From Promethearchaeota archaeon (GTDB taxonomy: Archaea; Asgardarchaeota; Hermodarchaeia; Hermodarchaeales; Hermodarchaeaceae), in assembly GCA_048939625.1 (NCBI GenBank), contig JBHLPH010000005.1, forward strand, positions 32,001-96,000: a stretch of 64,000 nucleotides of DNA, read 5' to 3'. The first letter of the stretch is position 1. Each line of letters starts with the position of its first letter. Shown here piece by piece: positions 1,006-34,419 of the stretch. The notes beneath the pieces are model-generated. The model searched no databases, was not told the origin of the DNA, and worked only from the letters and a program-made list of their open reading frames with translations. The position numbers were made by a program, and so were the translations under genes.

Positions 1006-4000
1006 CTAAAGCCGTTCATCGAGTTCGCGAAGTTGTTCCAGCATTTTCAGGCGGTCCGTAATATCACGGCAAATACCTCGGAATCCAAGAAGTTCGCTAG
1101 ACTCATTGAAAATTGGGCGACCACGGGCTTCAAGAACCACATCGGATTCGTCTCTGTGGACCATCTGGATGACGATTGTACGAATTGGTCGTCGTCTTTC
1201 TTTGAGTTCAGCCCATGTATTTTGTGCTCGTTTCACATCTTCAGGACGTAGGAAGTCGCAGGGGGTTCGTCCAAGCACTTGTCCTGCAGAAAATCCGATG
1301 ATGTCTTCGACAGCATTATTCGTGTAGACGAATTTCCCAGAAATATCCATTTCCCAAACCCAGTCTGAAAGGTCTTCAACAAGCGCTCGGTATCGTTCCT
1401 CTGATTCTTTTAGTGCAGCTTCCGCTTCTTTTCTTTCGGTGATATCTATATAAGCTGCTTGAACAGCTGGTTCGCCTTGGTACTCGATTCGATGAGCAAA
1501 AATTTCCACCCACACAATGGTCCCATCTTTTTTCATCAATCGATACTCGTATTGATTCGGAACGTCTTTGCCCATCAATCTGTTTTCAGCGCGGTTAATT
1601 ACTAACTCACGGTCTGCGGGATGAATTAATTCTTGGATTTTCCTTGGTGTCATTGCAAGGAGTTCCTCGATAGTGTAGCCAAGCATATCTGAGAAGGCTT
1701 CGTTGGCAAAGAAAAAGCGGAGAGGAGGACCCCGGGAGATTAGAATTCCAAAGAGGGATTGTTCTACAAGGGTGCGGTATTTTTCTTCGGATTCTTTGAT
1801 TGCTTGGTCAGCTCGGATGCGTTCTGTCACATCTGTGAGTGTTACCTGGATTGCTGGTTTTCCTTGGTAATCGATTATTTTCACCCAGATTTCTACCCAC
1901 TGAATAGTTCCTTCAATTGACATCACACGTATTTCATATCGATCTTGTACCTTCTTTCCTGCAAAGCGATCCTGCATACGTTGTTGTATCCATGTAACAT
2001 CTTCTGGATGAACACGATCCCAAAACGCGTTGGGTGGCATATCTAAGAGTTCATCTTGGGTGATATCGACCACCTCTTTCATTTGTGGGTTAGCAAACAC
2101 AATATGATCGTCTTGAATGATAAGTATCCCTTGGAGGGATTGATCGACTAAGGCGCGATATTTAGCCTCTGATTCTTTCAATGCAGTTTCGCTATGTTTA
2201 CGATCCGTGATGTCCTCCAGTGTTCCTTCATAACACTCAATTTTACCGCTCTTATCACGAATAGCTCGTGCAGAAAGGTTGACCCAGATTGTTGTTCCAT
2301 CTTCCCGTTTGAATTCAGCTTCGATTCCTGTCACAACATCTTCAAGGGCTACGGCAGCTTCCCAGTGTTTCCGTTCTTCAGGATCAAGATAGAAGCTCGA
2401 GGCCTTTCGTTTTAAAAGTGGTTCTTTGGTATCAAAGCCTAACATTTCAGTTAAGGCGGGATTAGCATCCAGGATGGTGCCATCGGGAGTTGTTCGGAAT
2501 AATCCAACTGGAACGCTATCGAAAAGGTGACGATATCGGGCTTCAGCTTCCTTCCGTTCACTGATGTCTCGAATGACTCCAAGAAACGCGGATGCTTTGC
2601 CTTCTGCATCTTTGAGAAGGGTAGCATTGAGTTCAGCAGGATAAGTGGTTCCATCTTTTCGCAATAAGTGATATTCAAGTGTCCCTGACGTTCCCTCTTC
2701 CAAGGTTTTTTCCATGTTTTTCATGGCGATTGGTATGTCATCTGGAGAAATCAACTCGAAGGCGTTCACACCGATTAAATCGGCTTCTGTTTTAACACCA
2801 TACAATTGGAGCGCCTGTTGATTAACCATTGTGATTTTGCCTTCAAGATTCGTTACCGTGATAGCATCTGGTGATGTTTCAACTAGGGTTCGATATTTTT
2901 CCTCGCTTTCCTTTAAAGCGATTTCAGCTTGTTTTCTTTCAGAAATATCTCTTGCTGCACTTTGTATATGAAGGGGCGTGCCATCAGCATCAGTGACTAA
3001 AGCTGCATTGATTTCAACTGGGAACTCATCACCGGTTTTTTTCCTAAAAACCCTTTCATAAACAGGTACAAGATCGCCGGCAAGTAAAGCGCGTAACACC
3101 CGTTTACTGTCCTCATATTCGCCTTCTGCTACGATATTATTAACTGGCAGTCCAATGAGTTCATCCAAAGTATAGCCAAGCATCTCTGCGGCTCGTTGAT
3201 TAGCTTCAAGAGTCTTCATATCAAGTGAGATGATAAATACTGCATCGTGAGTGTGCTCAAAAAGCGCACGATACCTGCGTTCTCTTTCTTTAAGGGCTTG
3301 TTCGGCTTGAATTCTTTCAGTGATATCCTCGAGAGAGCCTTCATAATATTGAATGGCACCGGATTCGTCTTTCTTAGCTCGGAAACTGTCATGAACCCAG
3401 ATGCGTTTACCATCTAGCCGTTTGAATTGTACATCATGGCCAGTAATGATATCTTCAGTCCCAAGTTTTGCTTCATATTGTACGCGTTCCTGCCGGTCGA
3501 CATAGAAATCAGAGGCGTTCATTTTCAGCAGGGTTTCCTTATCCTTTGCTCCAAGAAGCTCAATAAGGGCGGGATTCGCATCAATGATATCTCCTTCTAT
3601 AGTTGTACGGTAGAGTCCAATGGGAAGTTCATCGAATAGACCTCGATATCGGGCTTCGGATTCTTGGAGTTTGATATCAGCTTCTTGCCGTTCAGTGATG
3701 TCAAGAAAGGTTGCTTGAACAGCTGGCTTTCCATTATATTCGGTAACAGATACAAACATTTCAAGCCAGCGTTCTTCTCCACCCTTTTTGATTGCTTTAA
3801 ACTGATAATGAGAAGGAACAGATTTACCTTTAAGACGATCACGCATTCGACCCCAAACACGAGCTTGATAATCAGGGTGAACTCTGGCTTGAACTTCTTC
3901 TGGGGATAGGGATAGGATTTCATCAATTGTATAGCCACTAATGTCAGCAAAAGCTTGATTTGAAAAGACGACCTGCATGTCTTGAATGATGATGAGCCCT

Positions 4001-4620: not shown

Positions 4621-5625
4621 TCAAATTGTCGTGATTGGTCGGGTTTGGAGAATCACAAATTGATCCTTCTGAAGTGTCCATTCGATGTCTTGTGGATGTC
4701 CCATATGTTCTTCGATTTGCATACCAAGTCTAGCCAAACTAATAATTTCAGAATCCGTGAGGGAGAAGATTTTACGTTGCTTCTTAGGAGTTTCGATCAA
4801 CATTGTGCCTTGGGGGTGATCTCTAGGGTAGGGAGTACAGAGGAGGGCTTTTTCCCCGAGTTGGCGTTTGAGTATTTTCAAAGGGGTTTTTTGGAGAAGA
4901 AAAGAGTCGGGAATGACTTTTCCAGAAACGATGCTTTCTCCTATTCCCCATGTTGAGTCAATCATAAGTTGTTCGGAGTCATTGGTTGCAACATTTGCAG
5001 TGAACATTACACCAGAAATATCACCGATAATCATTTCTTGGACTATTACAGCCATTTGCATTTGATCGATTTTTATCCCCTTAGCTTGAAGATATAGAAG
5101 TGCCCTAGGAGAGTAAAGAGAGAGCCAAGTCATTTTCACTGCTTTAATAATACTAGGTAAGTCATGTACACAGAGAAAGGAATCAGCTTGGCCTGCGAAG
5201 GAGAAGTGTTCGCTATCTTCTGCGGTTGCTGAAGACCGAATTGCAAACCCAGTTGAGGATGGCTCGTGATGGGTGCGAAGAGAGCTAAATCCTCTACTGA
5301 TTTCCTTTTCAACTGGTTTGGGAATATCGTATTCGCTAGCAATTTTTCTGAAGGTTTCTGCTGAATGTAAAAGTTCTTCGAAGTTATTTTGCTCGAGTTG
5401 CAGCTTCTTATAAGATTCAAGATGTTTGCATTCTGAGATAAATGCGATAAAGCCCTTTATTGGAATTACAAACCCGCGTGGTATTGGAATTCCATTTTGG
5501 TGAAGTCGGGCAAGGTTAGTAGCTTTTCCACCATAAAGAGAAGGTTGATTGCTGGGAAGCTGATGCAAGAAGGAGATCTGGTAGCCAGATTGCTGATTAA
5601 GTTTCTTTGGATGATATTCCACCAA
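4621..5625 (-). CDS. Stand-alone PEP/pyruvate-binding (ATP-grasp) domain protein of PEP synthase N-terminal type
   Basis: GGKATNL, AIRSSATAED..SFAGQ, MAVIVQEMI, SGVMFT, WGIGESIVSG, PQDIEW and LQTRPIT motifs, followed directly by the stop. Confidence 0.93.
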   Translation of the reverse strand: MVEYHPKKLNQQSGYQISFLHQLPSNQPSLYGGKATNLARLHQNGIPIPRGFVIPIKGFIAFISECKHLESYKKLQLEQNNFEELLHSAETFRKIASEYDIPKPVEKEISRGFSSLRTHHEPSSTGFAIRSSATAEDSEHFSFAGQADSFLCVHDLPSIIKAVKMTWLSLYSPRALLYLQAKGIKIDQMQMAVIVQEMIIGDISGVMFTANVATNDSEQLMIDSTWGIGESIVSGKVIPDSFLLQKTPLKILKRQLGEKALLCTPYPRDHPQGTMLIETPKKQRKIFSLTDSEIISLARLGMQIEEHMGHPQDIEWTLQKDQFVILQTRPITTI

Positions 5626-5653: not shown

Positions 5654-6049
5654 TCAGGATTCGGTTTCCGTGATTAGTAATAATAATCCAATCGTTCCGT
5701 TACTGGGCTCGATTCGAACCATTTGATTATTCAGATTACCATCAAAATTAATTTTTGTACCCATAAGTGCAGGAATTCCAAATTCCCGTGTCACTATAGC
5801 AAGATGAGATCCCAAAGCCCCTGATGTGCAAATAACTCCTTTTAATCGAGAGAGTACAGGAGCTAATGTGGTTGTTCCCGCATCTTCTACGAGCACAATC
5901 TTATCGCTGGTTACTCCAGAAGATTCCTCAGCTTTGAATTCTTTGAGTAATGAAAGAACATCTTCTATTGAACTAATTACTCGAAGTACGCCTTGAGCTG
6001 ATTTCTGAAGAGTTAAAAGCCCTTCTCCAATTTGCTTCATAGTTACCAC
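5654..6049 (-). CDS. Stand-alone PEP-utilising mobile (phospho-histidine swivel) domain protein
   Basis: GVICTSGALGSHLAIVTREFGIPALMG signature; probable ATG start at 6040. Confidence 0.9.
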   Translation of the reverse strand: MVTMKQIGEGLLTLQKSAQGVLRVISSIEDVLSLLKEFKAEESSGVTSDKIVLVEDAGTTTLAPVLSRLKGVICTSGALGSHLAIVTREFGIPALMGTKINFDGNLNNQMVRIEPSNGTIGLLLLITETES

Positions 6050-6144
6050 CTAAATTTAAAATCATAAGCAGGTTTTGAAACTAAAAGACTTACTGGTTAG
6101 TTAAGAGTAGTTGGGCTAATCTGATGCCTTCAAGAAAGTAGATT

Positions 6145-17355: not shown

Positions 17356-18141
17356 ATGCAACCAATATCAGGACAAGCTATTTACGTAGTCTTACTTCGC
17401 GAACTTAAACGGTTCTGGCGAGCCAGAGCTCGAATTATAGCATCGATTGCTCAAAGCTTCTTTTTCCTCCTGATTCTAGGGTTTGGAATTGGAGGTTTGT
17501 TTGGAGGAGCAATGGGAGGTAGTTACCTTACTTATATCGCACCGGGAATTATTGCAATGTCATTACTGTTTGCTTCTGTCTTTTCAGGAGTTTCAGTGAT
17601 CTTCGATCGACAATTTGGCTTCTTCAAGGAGATGCTGGTTGCCCCAGTGAGTCGAACAAGCATCATTACAGGAAAGATATTTGGTGGGGCAATCACCGCC
17701 GTCATCCAAGGCTTGCTAATCCTCGTAGTATCAGCAGTCTTAGGAGCCTTTCTTCTCGATTTACGGTTCGCCATTGGCATTTTAGCAGGAATCGGAGTTA
17801 TGCTTCTCATTACTGCGGGATTTGTTGGGTTGGGTGTCGCCATAGGTTCAGCACTCACTGATTTCCATGCGTTCCAACTAATCAGCACCTTCATCATTTG
17901 GCCATTATTCATGCTCTCGGGAGTCTTCTTCCCCATTGACACTGCACCCATACCACTTCAAGTAGTCATGCTAGCCGATCCTCTATTCTATGGTGTAGAG
18001 CTCCTACGATTCTGTCTTGTAGGATATATAACGCCGATCCTTGGACCTTGGGGACCATTCATTGCGCTTGGTGTACTCGGAGGTTTCTCACTTTTGATGA
18101 TAGCGATCGGAACCTACCTCTTCTCCCGAGCTGAAGCCTAA
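17356..18141 (+). CDS. ABC-2 type permease (DrrB-like)
   Basis: Six TM segments; DRQFGFFKEMLVAPVSR, LSGVFFP, DPLFYGV. Confidence 0.92.
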   Translation: MQPISGQAIYVVLLRELKRFWRARARIIASIAQSFFFLLILGFGIGGLFGGAMGGSYLTYIAPGIIAMSLLFASVFSGVSVIFDRQFGFFKEMLVAPVSRTSIITGKIFGGAITAVIQGLLILVVSAVLGAFLLDLRFAIGILAGIGVMLLITAGFVGLGVAIGSALTDFHAFQLISTFIIWPLFMLSGVFFPIDTAPIPLQVVMLADPLFYGVELLRFCLVGYITPILGPWGPFIALGVLGGFSLLMIAIGTYLFSRAEA

Positions 18142-29923: not shown

Positions 29924-29951
29924 AAAAAAAGTGGTGCAAAAAAAGCACCAC
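29924..29951 (-). terminator. Hairpin plus T7 terminator
   Basis: Minus strand GTGGTGC-T7-GCACCAC-T7. Confidence 0.65.
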
Positions 29952-30195
29952 ACGATAGCGGGATGGGGCGTCCTAGAACGAGGACATAAAGGAGGAGAGG
30001 GGGAGAGGGGAATGAAAGACACAGGGAAGGAGACCCCATCCTATCGCCGTAGTAGTGTCGTTTTACCTCGTTCGGTGTGTTGTGTGTGGAGAACTGTGTT
30101 CCATGACGAGGTGGAGTTAGGGTTGGAAAGAGTGCTTTCTTCAAGTGAAAGCGCTTGTGTTGTGCTCTATTCCACCTCGGGGAACTCCCGTTATC
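29924..30195 (-). ncRNA. Candidate structured ncRNA 1 (about 270 nt, unknown family)
   Basis: BRE/TATA-like GGAAACGTTTTAAAT at about 30233-30219, stems CGAGGTGGA/TCCACCTCG and CGATAG-GATGGGG/CCCCATC-CTATCG, large C/U-rich loop, terminal hairpin plus T7; ends and strand inferred. Confidence 0.55.
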
Positions 30196-30301
30196 CAACT
30201 GGATATAGGTTATACTGAATTTAAAACGTTTCCTTTTACTGTTGGAGTTTTTTCCGTAAATCAGAGTAGATTCGGAAAAAATGACTGAACAGCATGTTAC
30301 C

Positions 30302-32071
30302 TCAGGAAGTGTTCCGAGCTCTTCTGCGGAAGACGAGAGCAAGTGAAATAGTTAAGGTAAAGCCAATGATGATGGAGAGAAGAGGAAATCCAGGGATACC
30401 AGGTGGGGGAGGGGTCCAAGTCGAATCTTGAAATGTGACACGGAAGGTGATAGAAGCGGCATTACCATAGGGATCAAATGCTGTGACGTTCAGTCCAAAC
30501 GTTACTCCAGTAGCGCCTGTTGTACTTTCGAGAAGGCCTAAGTTAGATATTTCAAAATTAGATGTATCATTGACCAGCCAGTCGGTAATTCCAGAACGGT
30601 CGGTGGCATTAAGCCGGAGAACGAGTCCGAGGCCATATTCGACGATTTGATCTTCGGGGATGTTTAACCAAGTTGGAGCGATTGTATCGCGTATTTGGAA
30701 TTGAAAGGTGCTTGAGAGGATGAGCCCACTGGAGTCGTTAACGTGAACTTCGACTCCGTAGTCTCCAACCGCTAGTGAGGTTGTGTTTTGAATCAGTCCT
30801 GTGCTATCGATGGCGAAGTTGGTAGTATCATTGATCCACCACGTATCAACGGGATTAATGGAAAAGGTGCTGAGTTGGTAAGAGCACAAATCTCCAAATT
30901 CGATTTGTTGATCTGTAGGAAGGTCAGTCCATTCGAAAGGAAGATGGCCTGGAACTAGGTCAAAGGCTTCGAAGAGGTATTCACCAATGTCCGTTAGATG
31001 AGAGAAGGTGGGAAGAACAGTTGTGGTGTTGTGATAGACAAATACGGGTACTGGGGCGTCAGTATGATAGGTATCAGTGAATTGGTATTGCAACACGGGA
31101 TTAGTCATGTTGACCCAGAGACCACCGCATTCATGATCAGCGGTGACAATCAGGAGGGTACGGTTATTTTGCTGGGTGTACTCATAGGCAACTTGAACAG
31201 CTTCGTCGAAGGCAATGGTTTCGCCGATAGTGTGATTGATGTGCCAATCATGACAGGCGTGGTCAATCCGACCACCTTCGACCATGAGGAAGAATCCGGT
31301 TGAGCTCCGATCAAGGAATTGCAATGAAATGTTGGTCATTTCTTTCAGATGGGGTTCGATGAGAGGGTTGCGATCGTATTCGTAATTCATATAGTAATCA
31401 GTAAATAACCCGAGTAGGTAATCGGCACTTGCACTCGCAATCATGTCGTTTCGATTTTGCACAATCGTGTACCCAAGGCTAGTCGCTGTTGCTAGTTGAG
31501 AAGAGTAGTATTCGAGTCCCCCACCAAGGAGTACCTCAATGTCCTTGGTAATTTGTTGTTGAGCGATTGTATATTGATCATTGCGATTTGGGACATGTGA
31601 CGAAAAGGGAGCTGGTGTTCCATGCGTAAGAGTAGTGGTTGTCACTAAACCTGTGGCTTTATCTAACGCTTCAGCGGCTTCTAGAATCGTGGTCAACTTT
31701 TCACCAGTCGGTAACATAGCAACCATATTGTTGTTCGTCCGATTCCCGGTTGCGAGAGCTGTTGCAGCGGCAGCAGAGTCAGTCACTGAACTATCCAAAG
31801 AATACGTTTCGATATCGCCAAGGTACGACAATTCTTCCATAGTTAAATTTCCGGATGTTCCCAACCATTTCTTGGTAGCATTAATTTGTCCCCAGCCCAT
31901 GCCATCTCCAATCATCAAAATGACGTTCTCAAAAGGCGCATCAGGAGATGCAGGTGCAAGAAGAACATTTTGGCTAACCTGGGCCATTGGAGTGATCACA
32001 GTTATTGGAAAAGGAGATATCAGAAGCAGACTAAGCAGTATTGATAGAGAAACAATTGAAATTAATTTCAG
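30302..32071 (-). CDS. Cell-surface alkaline phosphatase with Ig/cadherin-like domains and PGF-type C-terminal sorting signal
   Basis: NVILMIGDGMG, VTDSAAAATA, VEGGRIDHACH, VTADHECGG; tail PPPPGIPGFP-TM-RRR; the frame extends 24 codons above the track start to a CTG, adding a signal peptide. Confidence 0.9.
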   Translation of the reverse strand: MKLISIVSLSILLSLLLISPFPITVITPMAQVSQNVLLAPASPDAPFENVILMIGDGMGWGQINATKKWLGTSGNLTMEELSYLGDIETYSLDSSVTDSAAAATALATGNRTNNNMVAMLPTGEKLTTILEAAEALDKATGLVTTTTLTHGTPAPFSSHVPNRNDQYTIAQQQITKDIEVLLGGGLEYYSSQLATATSLGYTIVQNRNDMIASASADYLLGLFTDYYMNYEYDRNPLIEPHLKEMTNISLQFLDRSSTGFFLMVEGGRIDHACHDWHINHTIGETIAFDEAVQVAYEYTQQNNRTLLIVTADHECGGLWVNMTNPVLQYQFTDTYHTDAPVPVFVYHNTTTVLPTFSHLTDIGEYLFEAFDLVPGHLPFEWTDLPTDQQIEFGDLCSYQLSTFSINPVDTWWINDTTNFAIDSTGLIQNTTSLAVGDYGVEVHVNDSSGLILSSTFQFQIRDTIAPTWLNIPEDQIVEYGLGLVLRLNATDRSGITDWLVNDTSNFEISNLGLLESTTGATGVTFGLNVTAFDPYGNAASITFRVTFQDSTWTPPPPGIPGFPLLSIIIGFTLTISLALVFRRRARNTS

Positions 32072-32218
32072 GATGATCCAACCTCTTAGCCGTAACCGAG
32101 TATATGCTCATTTTAAATTGTTCGATTAACACAGCAATTTTGTTGTTTAATGGTTTATTGAAAGACAAGGTTTTTTATACAACTTTCAATTGAGAGCAAA
32201 GTGGAGGGTTTCTTAGTA

Positions 32219-32950
32219 ATGACCTTTATTGAAGCTCCTTTACATTTCGGTCTGCTCTTGACAACGACAATCATTTTATTGCTAATGACACTCATTGGGT
32301 TTCTGTGGGTTGTAAAAACTGAGAATGCGCGTGCGGGTCTTTGGTCGGGATTCCTAACGATTTTTTTCGCGTTCTTTACGTTTCTGATTCTCACAATCAT
32401 GGTGTTTCAGGTGCCTGCTGTTGCGACAGTGAGTGAACTCTTGCCATATTCACTGGGCGCATGGACATGTGTGTCGCTCCATGCTTTCTTCCTATTGTAC
32501 TATGTTCTAGGATTCAGGTGGCTGCAAAAACGAGTCTGGCTTGCCATCCTGCCTGTTATAGGTACCATGGGATTTGTGACAATCCTGTGGATTTACGCCA
32601 CACCAGCGAATATGATCCTTGTTTTTGATGGTGTCATGAATTGGCTGGCGATGCCATCGATTATTGTTGGCGTTGGTGGCGTCCTGGCAATCTTCTATAT
32701 GTTTTTGGCACCGACCTTTGCGGTTTATCAGGTCACGAAATCGCAAGAAGGCATGGTGAAGATGGGAAACTGGATTAGCTGGATTGGCCTATTTCTTTGG
32801 TTCATCGCTGCACTTCTCATGGCTCTGGTCCTTTATGTTGCACCATACATGCTCTTTGTCATAGCCCTTGCGACTGTCGCTTACATTCTTGTGTTCATCG
32901 GTTGGCTCATGGCCACACGAGGAATCAGCTCACCGGCATCGACTGGATGA
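32219..32950 (+). CDS. Stand-alone 7-TM membrane protein
   Basis: Seven hydrophobic helices; GGAGG before the ATG at 32219; paralog of the next gene. Confidence 0.82.
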   Translation: MTFIEAPLHFGLLLTTTIILLLMTLIGFLWVVKTENARAGLWSGFLTIFFAFFTFLILTIMVFQVPAVATVSELLPYSLGAWTCVSLHAFFLLYYVLGFRWLQKRVWLAILPVIGTMGFVTILWIYATPANMILVFDGVMNWLAMPSIIVGVGGVLAIFYMFLAPTFAVYQVTKSQEGMVKMGNWISWIGLFLWFIAALLMALVLYVAPYMLFVIALATVAYILVFIGWLMATRGISSPASTG

Positions 32951-32952
32951 AT

Positions 32953-33000
32953 AATGCCTGAGATTCCCTTAAATGGAAATCAGGCATTTCCCTCTTTTTT
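32953..33000 (+). terminator. Hairpin plus pyrimidine/T tract
   Basis: AATGCCTGA...TCAGGCATT-TCCCTC-T6. Confidence 0.7.
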
Positions 33001-33060
33001 CTGAAACGCGAGCGTTTTTATAGCCAATGCCAAAGATGGAAGGCTGGAGGGTTTTTCTGA

Positions 33061-33786
33061 ATGCTCTATATCACTGAAGCACCAATTAAATTCGGGATAG
33101 CGACAGCAGTTTGTATAATTGCAATAATTGGAGTAATATTGTCTATCTGGTTGGTGAGAAAGTCGCAGGGTTTCTATCGGACCATGCGGGCCTTTTTTGT
33201 GCTATCTCTGATTTGCTTGTCCCTTGGCTTCCTGTTTATCGCTTTGTCCTTTTACAATCTCCCAGCCGCGGCTACTGTTGAACAGATGTTACCGTATAAT
33301 CAGCTTATCTATGCGTTCATTGGATTACATGCTTTTTTCCTGTGGTTGTATTTCTGGTGGCAATGGTTCAGTGAAAAGAAATTGCGTTTAATATTCCCCG
33401 TCATCTTAACAGGCGTTTTTCTTGTACTCCTTATGATCTTGCCGACGCCTCTCACGACAGGCATTGTGTCGGATGGCGTGAACAACTACTTGGTCATGCC
33501 CCTTCTACTATCCGCGTATGGGGCACTTCTCATCCTGTGGTATCTGCTACTGGTGCCTTTTATTGCGTTGTATCGGTTAGCAAATGAACGGGAAGGGATG
33601 AACAAAACCTGGACATGGATCAGCCTCTTTTCCTTGATTCTTTGGTTTATAGCAGTGATGATGATGGCAATGGTCGCCTTCATTCCCACAGGTATGCTCT
33701 ATGGCCTTGGACTAAGCATTGTCGCATGGCTTCTGTTCTTCATCTCAGGCAGCCAGATTCATCTCCCGATGACCCTTGAGCCTTAA
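33061..33786 (+). CDS. Stand-alone 7-TM membrane protein (paralog)
   Basis: Shared EAP, PAxATVxxxLPY, LHAFFL, DGVxNxLxMP and LWFIA motifs. Confidence 0.82.
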   Translation: MLYITEAPIKFGIATAVCIIAIIGVILSIWLVRKSQGFYRTMRAFFVLSLICLSLGFLFIALSFYNLPAAATVEQMLPYNQLIYAFIGLHAFFLWLYFWWQWFSEKKLRLIFPVILTGVFLVLLMILPTPLTTGIVSDGVNNYLVMPLLLSAYGALLILWYLLLVPFIALYRLANEREGMNKTWTWISLFSLILWFIAVMMMAMVAFIPTGMLYGLGLSIVAWLLFFISGSQIHLPMTLEP

Positions 33787-33791
33787 TCACT

Positions 33792-33832
33792 CCCGTAGCA
33801 TTCCTGATGATGCTACGGGCCTCACCCTTTTT
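33792..33832 (+). terminator. Hairpin plus pyrimidine/T tract
   Basis: CCCGTAGCAT...ATGCTACGGG-CCTCACCC-T5. Confidence 0.7.
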
Positions 33833-33924
33833 CAAACAATACGTATTCATAAGATGAGAAGGCTAAAACTAAAAACAGAATAACACATTCGCCGAATGGA
33901 CTTTATAGTCAAGCTGTTGGGTGG

Positions 33925-34240
33925 AGGTGCCCGAGAAAGACCGGGCACGTCCCTGTGTGGTCATTCCCCTATATCCCCGAAGGGGAGCAACGTAGACATA
34001 GGACGGTCATCGGTGCCAGATGCCTCAGGAAAAAACATCTGAGGTTCGGACAACGGGAGGTGGGATTTGGGAGGTACAGGATTCGGGAGGGTTCCCTGGG
34101 TGGGATAGATTTTTCGAGGCGCCAGGACAACCAATGCGCATCCTTGGTGCTTCCCGCAGTCTTCGTTACTAAATAGTACTTTCTGAGTTGTGCGTTTGCG
34201 TAGTTCCCACAATCGAAACTACGCATTTGCGCAGTATTTC
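33925..34240 (+). ncRNA. Candidate structured ncRNA 2 or long structured leader (may also encode a 50-aa peptide, 34020-34172)
   Basis: TTTATA at 33902; GC-rich island of hairpins (GTGCCCG/CGGGCAC, CCCCGAAGGGG, CCTCAG/CTGAGG, GCGCCAGGA/TCCTTGGTGC, TGCGTAGTT/AACTACGCA); repeated GGGAGG; ends inferred. Confidence 0.55.
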
Positions 34241-34419
34241 AATCAGAAATGATGTGAAACTGAATAAAAACTTGGAGATTTCACGCGATTGCGGGCTTCC
34301 GAGTCCTCTTAAAAGGTTTACACTTTATTAGATAGATGCACTGACGAAGTTGTGGTTTTCGAGAGAAGGACAAAGCATATCAGCTTCCGAACCACGTGGG
34401 TAATTGATATCCAGAACCA

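Follow-up and report, generated by a model that had tools for sequence, protein, structure and literature searches.

Two divergent candidate RNA genes of an Asgard archaeal class share a pyrimidine-rich module: a putative small RNA family and its possible decoy

Why should two structured intergenic elements, lying on opposite strands of the same archaeal locus, carry the same short pyrimidine-rich motif? The question is raised by a 64,000-nucleotide (nt) stretch of a Promethearchaeota archaeon genome (GenBank assembly GCA_048939625.1, contig JBHLPH010000005.1, positions 32,001 to 96,000), hereafter the window, in which an earlier reading made from the letters of the DNA (the sequence-only reading) had picked out one element on the minus strand (E1) and one on the plus strand (E2) as a candidate new non-coding RNA family or an interacting RNA pair. 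To our knowledge, almost nothing is known about regulatory RNAs in the Asgard archaea, which are mostly uncultured. Our analysis suggests that E1 and E2 are distinct non-coding RNA genes, restricted to a single Asgard class and kept adjacent and divergent, and that E1 would be a member of a family of base-pairing small RNAs (sRNAs) with an anti-Shine-Dalgarno-like (anti-SD-like) loop, with E2 as a possible decoy or partner. We put our confidence in this explanation at roughly 0.45, with transcription, RNA-RNA binding and targets all inferred.

The shared motif itself is readily recovered. The pattern TCCCTGTGT-N2-3-TCATTCCCC occurs at 30007-30027 on the minus strand and at 33950-33969 on the plus strand, where the sequence-only reading had placed it, with TCCCC after each copy. 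No match was seen in 100 dinucleotide shuffles, and a search of the whole assembly (2.31 Mb in 83 contigs, 87.6% complete) allowing up to two mismatches returned these two copies only, with none expected by chance. This excludes low-complexity coincidence and the prospect of many random copies; the presence of just two copies in the genome, at a locus that is syntenic across the genus, likewise rules out a repeat or the end of a miniature inverted-repeat transposable element.

The class was sampled through 19 species in two genera (genus 1 and genus 2), with E1 and E2 falling within one family. BLAST found E1 in 14 of the 19 genomes and E2 in 13, each in both genera, and neither RNA in 42 genomes of 19 other families. 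A covariance model of the E1 3' domain, run on 151 genomes of the phylum, had no match in the 132 that belong to 26 other families. The independent sequences available are few, about 14 species and a few metagenome contigs. E1 and E2 are co-present in 13 genomes and lie on one contig in nine, always divergently and at a distance of about 0.1-6 kb. In genus 2 they are only about 90-300 nt apart, with a start-to-start distance of about 90 nt, around a single palindromic TATA sequence, TTTTAAAA. In genus 1 the interval always holds seven-transmembrane (7TM) paralogues, one to three of them, and sometimes an alkaline phosphatase gene.

An arrangement of this kind could also reflect a role of the motif as DNA, either as an inverted-repeat operator through which one transcription factor co-regulates two divergent units or as an element resembling an origin recognition box. 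The two copies are mutually inverted and in genus 2 lie within about 230 bp of each other, and clear DNA-type palindromes lie just downstream of E2. Against this, copy spacing varies from 0.2 to 6 kb, no Orc1/Cdc6 gene is found nearby, and the motif lies inside the predicted transcripts, its E1 copy in a loop whose closing stem shows compensatory changes. We consider a DNA-level role very improbable. Origin recognition box repeats of a replication origin were rejected, given the absence of an Orc1/Cdc6 gene nearby and the position of the motif within a covarying RNA stem-loop.

Five genomes have neither RNA. They are uninformative as a test of co-loss, because contigs end at the locus in two, the whole locus is missing from two, and in the fifth, a genus 2 genome, the marker gene used does not adjoin the pair. 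A different kind of loss is seen in genome G011 (contig C2, 6190-6440, locus L135), where E2 and the gene for a TackOD1-HTH (helix-turn-helix) regulator are gone with no remnant. The gap lies between the HEAT-repeat gene and the 7TM genes, as a clean joint deletion, and E2 may therefore be functionally tied to the TackOD1-HTH regulator.

Orthologue comparison bears out the proposal that both elements are conserved, structured and non-coding. For E1 (coordinates in Table 1), the promoter string AAAGGAAAGCxTTTTAAATT is present in all genus 1 orthologues and in the metagenome copies, about 25 nt upstream of the point at which RNA conservation starts. Each copy had been thought to take its orientation from a TATA box of its own; for E1 a B recognition element (BRE) and TATA box are conserved, and for E2 the TATA-like sequence at 33902-33907 is not conserved in orthologues. 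The closing stem of E1 is 100% paired in 13 sequences, compared with at most 50% in slid controls, and three of its pairs are changed on both sides (UA/CG, GC/AU and GC/AU). In 13 of 14 genomes, and likewise in five metagenome contigs, the 56-nt loop above it has one and the same sequence; the sole variant is that of G016. Identity over this length in two genera implies that E1 would have a conserved partner. The variable domain of E1 is absent from genus 2 and has compensatory pairs at alignment columns 63-68/76-81. No conserved open reading frame (ORF) was found on either strand of E1 in the orthologue comparison. A protein-coding E1 was rejected, as the plus-strand ORF beginning at an ATG in the loop complement spans 7-68 codons and is frame-shifted among orthologues.

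How accessible the E1 loop would be is less clear-cut. The motif had been described as exposed in this loop, and the single-sequence fold does leave the loop free; RNAalifold, on the other hand, allows the purine-rich segment X1 (30161-30178) to pair with the shared motif over 18 bp. Energies of -21 to -25 kcal/mol were obtained for this pairing in all lineages, three with a different X1 among them, with z-scores against shuffles of only -0.7 to -3.5. In genus 1, X1 can alternatively pair about as strongly with a variable local partner. On these models the E1 loop may be free or partly masked by X1.

E1 appears to belong to a multi-copy sRNA family, of which this genome has three or more members. 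Pattern searching located two siblings on other contigs, C31 and C75. Both have a TATA box of their own, an outer stem, a closing stem of the GGCGA..CCGCC type and a loop in which CCAUUCCCUCUCCCCUCC is followed by a GUCC hairpin. A covariance model additionally picked up weak full-length E1 paralogues in genus 2, which have the E1 scaffold and a loop akin to that of E1. Within the motif, the second half (CAUUCCC..CUCUCCCC) is the core common to the whole E1 family and the first half (UCCCUGUGU) is common to E1 and E2 only; a UCAUYCCCCU core is retained in E1, its paralogues and E2. A further C-rich candidate was noted on contig C40 (4641-4760, minus strand). In the genus 2 genome G018 (contig C88, locus L031) the E1 3' module, made up of a GUCCUCGUUCUAAGGAC hairpin, the stem strand that follows it and the terminator, stands directly after two consecutive protein genes (230-300 and 1246-1330), as if reused as a 3' untranslated region or terminator cassette.

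The helices of E2 are reported here from the alignment only, because its single-sequence folds are mutually inconsistent, with unremarkable z-scores (-0.7, -1.1 and -2.1). In a ten-sequence genus 1 alignment the RNAalifold structure is 90% paired, compared with 55% or less when slid, and 10 pairs are changed on both sides, compared with 4.1 ± 1.6 in shuffles. The best helix is P6 (34011-34026 with 34116-34133; alignment columns 103-118 with 236-253), in which 6 of 14 pairs are changed on both sides and which genus 2 keeps with a quite different sequence. It is flanked by P5 (34000-34006/34136-34145), with a GC-to-AU double change in genome G014, and by P4 (33987-33997/34159-34169). E2 can thus be modeled as a long nested stem, or rod, whose predicted apical domain holds an invariant 16-mer and a purine tract, the G-rich tract of the sequence-only reading. 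The motif sits 5' of the long stem, between two small hairpins. The suggestion that the two elements form one new RNA family does not stand: E1 belongs with a multi-copy sRNA family defined by a closing stem and a C/U-rich loop, and E2 is a distinct, rod-shaped RNA.

Several other identities for E2 were considered and rejected. Single-base indels in the alignment exclude a protein-coding element. The U-run at 34110-34114 was discarded as a terminator, as conservation extends beyond it and it pairs with an A-run in the covariation-supported fold. E2 is also not the 5' leader of the TackOD1-HTH gene, since a separate conserved promoter (34306-34319) and palindromes intervene and genus 2 has other downstream genes. 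This downstream region has features of its own: three GCGTAG/CTACGC half-sites at 34198-34234, one of them forming a near-perfect 16-bp palindrome, a second palindrome of the ACGCGATTGCGG type at 34283-34295, and at the promoter a strongly conserved BRE/TATA (CTTAAAAGGTTT). Both genera conserve all of these elements even though they have different genes downstream, and by sequence the elements look like an operator and promoter for some transcription factor.

Neither element had been recognized as a known RNA family, and the database search agrees. Rfam 15 (4227 models) gave no match at the gathering threshold for E1 or E2 in the window or in four orthologous loci, and a permissive search gave two chance-level matches (E 2-8), of which one falls in a coding region. 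The archaeal RNase P RNA of this genome (RF00373) was located on contig C62 with 179.6 bits, and E1 and E2 do not match that model. E2 resembles archaeal signal recognition particle (SRP) RNA in size and GC-rich composition, and its string GAAGGGGAGCAAC recalls what we take to be the apex of SRP RNA helix 8; this served as a lead only. A permuted or split SRP RNA (RF01857) was rejected as an identity for E2, there being no model match in the region at E <= 10 and canonical copies in congeners. The covariance model found no SRP RNA anywhere in this assembly, whereas 16 of 18 sister genomes have a canonical copy on other contigs (104-137 bits), so that its absence here is probably an assembly gap. 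On present comparisons E1 and E2 therefore appear to be strongly conserved, uncatalogued RNA families.

What, then, is the motif shared by the two RNAs? When the E1 module was aligned to the E2 of each genome, 20-27 identities over ~28 nt were found at one and the same E2 site in 12 of 13 genomes, so that the motif is indeed kept in orthologous loci. In 11 genomes the similarity is higher than in any of 300 composition shuffles, and it is longest and greatest in genus 2. In G005 an insert of ~28 nt splits the E2 motif, and the rest of E2, G tract included, is retained. This insert (loci L015/L027, contig C54) carries a TATA-like AAAGGTATAAAAAC and is identical in metagenome loci L147 and L149; it may perhaps have created a new start, truncating the E2 5' end. 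The flanks of the motif had been called otherwise unrelated, which needs a correction: the 5' hairpin region of E1 resembles E2 34085-34110. This second, weaker likeness consists of a hairpin and a GGUGGRAUAGA segment and is weakly significant in two of seven genomes. The order of the modules is opposite in the two RNAs, purine then pyrimidine in E1 and pyrimidine then purine in E2, and a duplication, whether direct or inverted, does not readily account for this reversal.

The presence of two common modules invites the view of a relic of shared ancestry: parts of one RNA gene would have been duplicated and rearranged into the other, with each RNA now working alone and using the motif only for its own folding. 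The adjacency of the two genes in genus 2 would fit this, as would the presence in each RNA of a segment able to pair with that RNA's motif and the similar energy sums of internal and cross pairings. The reversed module order is, however, incompatible with a simple direct or inverted duplication. A relic would also be expected to drift, yet the module is 20-27/28 identical in both genera, and the G tract of E2 is kept where its own motif is broken. We regard this origin as an unlikely explanation of the motif, yet as a serious rival.

Under the reading that we favor, the shared motif would be a pyrimidine module complementary to purine tracts, and the E1 copy could pair with its own X1 or with the G tract of E2. 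E1 and its siblings would base-pair through the C/U-rich loop with purine-rich ribosome-binding and start regions of messenger RNAs (mRNAs), blocking translation; the CCUCC of the loop would serve as the anti-SD-like element and its CAU is complementary to start codons. Shine-Dalgarno-like (SD-like) sites do occur in this genome, at 25% of crude start calls compared with 5% at a control offset, and the mean pairing energy of the E1 loop is -15.4 kcal/mol with start regions and -13.6 kcal/mol with internal windows. Precedents for such an activity are found in Methanosarcina mazei, where the intergenic sRNA41 and sRNA154 repress translation with complementary sequence that masks ribosome-binding sites (PMC5867862; Buddeweg et al. 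2017 cited there). It is the combination of SD-like site usage, a loop with CCUCC and CAU, start-region pairing and these known archaeal sRNAs that leads us to favor an anti-SD role for E1. The GGGAGG repeats of the E2 apical domain resemble Shine-Dalgarno sites; as mimics they would bind E1, making E2 a decoy or partner, with the motif copy in E2 acting as an internal competitor that pairs with the E2 G tract.

Modeling of this E1:E2 interaction gave extensive complementarity. In the cofold minimum of several genomes the E1 motif region and E2 34054-34081 form 22-25 bp, and for the isolated segments the pairing energy lies between -30 and -41 kcal/mol in each of the 11 genomes analyzed. The internal alternative in E2, its own motif with the G tract, reaches -27 to -36 kcal/mol, so the E1:E2 duplex is equal or better. 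Repeated complementary sites, as looked for in a sponge or decoy, are present as the three GGGAGG repeats complementary to the E1 motif. We also count in favor of our overall reading that the E2 G tract is retained in G005, where the E2 motif is disrupted.

A number of results weigh against the favored reading. Orthologue comparison found neither a conserved promoter nor an oligo-U terminator for E2. The enrichment of E1-loop pairing at start regions is small. The energy gained on cofolding E1 with E2 (-14 to -31 kcal/mol) lies within about 0-2.5 standard deviations of that for dinucleotide-shuffled E2, and a genome-wide duplex scan ranks the E2 tract only 79th of about 21,500 G-rich windows as a partner for the E1 loop, and about 14th among the non-coding ones; the top matches are purine-rich coding repeats of the poly-Glu type. 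Covariation cannot lend support to trans pairing, because both partners are nearly invariant, and the few changes that the E2 tract does contain create mismatches with E1. Finally, G011 keeps E1 with an identical loop despite the deletion of E2, and E2 therefore cannot be the sole constraint on this loop. The pairing as modeled is thus not distinguishable from composition, and lacks the specificity looked for in a sponge or decoy. Of the earlier proposal that E1 pairs in trans with the G-rich tract of E2, the complementarity was found in every genome tested; it proved no better than in shuffles or at other purine-rich sites, and E1 is unchanged where E2 is lost. A further version of the model, a dedicated two-RNA switch, seems doubtful to us: here the E2 motif would be a lid on the SD-mimic tract, E1 or a sibling would displace the lid, and E2 would titrate the E1 family off mRNAs.

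The survival of the E1 loop in G011 without E2 would also fit a shared module that is a common binding site for a protein, for example an Sm-like or lineage-specific RNA-binding protein, with protein contacts accounting for the invariance of the loop. Identity over 56 nt in two genera, with drifting flanking stems, exceeds what a seed would require, and retention of the UCAUYCCCCU core throughout E1, its paralogues and E2 points the same way; AUUUG and AU4-6G strings in the E2 tract also resemble Sm sites, by eye only. Against a protein site, no gene for an RNA-binding protein is conserved beside the pair, the neighbors being HTH regulators, 7TM proteins, alkaline phosphatase and a HEAT-repeat protein. 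In addition, both RNAs conserve purine segments to which the motif is complementary, and a site that only binds protein would have no need of such complementarity. We judge a protein site to be improbable, yet a serious rival.

The closest known systems resemble E1 and E2 in some respects and differ in others. E1 would be like the M. mazei sRNAs in being a stand-alone archaeal sRNA, with a promoter and terminator of its own by sequence and a C/U-rich, CCUCC-containing region predicted to be single-stranded. Unlike sRNA41 and sRNA154, with which it has no sequence or structural homology (Rfam null), E1 is longer and has several siblings. In place of a short seed it carries an invariant loop of 56 nt, and it is linked with a purine-rich neighbor RNA.

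In bacteria, C-rich-loop sibling sRNAs (the cuckoo or CcsR-type CCUCCUCCC RNAs, and RsaE) are multi-copy and have an anti-SD-like pyrimidine loop held open by stems, in short tandem hairpins. E1 has instead one large loop with archaeal promoter and terminator signals, and neither E1 nor E2 matches an Rfam model of these bacterial RNAs. Sponge or decoy RNAs titrate sRNAs, and E2 is like them in its three repeats complementary to the E1-family core and its long predicted duplex. It differs in being large and separately folded, with invariant elements of its own, among them the 16-mer at 34041-34056, for which a simple decoy would have no use.

The predicted features of both RNAs are collected in Table 1.

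Table 1. Predicted features of E1, E2 and the E1 siblings (window positions unless a contig is named)
Feature	Position	Strand	Basis or remark
E1 promoter: TATA box TTTTAAAT (30226-30219), purine-rich BRE just upstream	30219..30236	-	conservation
E1 transcript, predicted, about 270 nt, from near the transcription start site to the U7 run	29924..30197	-	conserved promoter and terminator bounds
E1 5' hairpin (CGGGAG..CCCCG) and purine-rich segment X1 (GAGGUGGAAUAGAGCACA), nearly invariant	30161..30190	-	invariant alignment columns
E1 variable domain: hairpins and local pyrimidine partner of X1 (about 30107-30120)	30050..30160	-	folds, alignment
E1 closing stem, 5' strand	30033..30048	-	pairs with 29958-29969
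E1 56-nt C/U-rich loop, contains CCUCC and CAU	29975..30030	-	conservation
Shared motif copy 1 (Y1)	30006..30027	-	pattern search, module alignment
E1 small hairpin GUCC..GGAC (29985-29970) and closing stem 3' strand (29969-29958)	29958..29985	-	
E1 terminator hairpin, then U7	29924..29951	-	helix with two pairs changed on both sides
E2 structured core, predicted, about 250 nt	33920..34169	+	conserved alignment blocks, structure counts
E2 5' hairpin P1 (GUGCCCG / CGGGCAC)	33927..33948	+	fold; genus 2 has a different hairpin there
Shared motif copy 2 (Y2), extended module	33950..33978	+	pattern search, module alignment
E2 long-range helix P6, 5' strand	34011..34026	+	covariation
E2 invariant 16-mer GAGGUUCGGACAACGG	34041..34056	+	invariant in 13/13 E2 sequences
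E2 purine tract: three GGGAGG repeats, seven GGG runs	34054..34106	+	34054-34081 is the predicted motif partner
E2 3' strands: P6 34116-34133, P5 34136-34145, P4 34159-34169	34116..34169	+	
E1-family sibling	contig C31 ~17560-17790	-	pattern search
E1-family sibling	contig C75 ~4960-5130	+	pattern search

The surroundings of the pair offered some further observations. The two paralogous 7TM proteins of the window (32201-32950 and 33061-33786) have no Pfam match, and UGGAGGGUUU stands upstream of both ATGs; the alkaline phosphatase gene at 30302-31999 is found in only four genomes. The closest named protein relative of a window gene is labeled Thorarchaeota, at 67% identity. A GC-rich conserved element of about 180 nt was seen in genome G010 (contig C21, locus L175, ~1500-1680, minus strand), upstream of a glycosyltransferase-like gene whose product begins MRIGITCYPG, and the same element is inserted downstream of E2 in G009 (L129, ~5900-6110). 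It ends in GUUUCGGACAACGG, has a 12-mer in common with the invariant block of E2 and gave no Rfam match; from its sequence it may be a leader or riboswitch-like element.

Covariance models of E1 and E2 would improve the annotation of these genomes, even without a known function, and the sequences of both are well enough defined to be open to direct experiment. Regulation by sRNAs and decoys is so far known mainly from bacteria and eukaryotes. If E1 does mask ribosome-binding sites and E2 does titrate E1, such regulation would be extended to the Asgard archaea, and the two-RNA switch, if true, would give archaea their first described sRNA/anti-sRNA (decoy) circuit and would place it in the lineage closest to eukaryotes.

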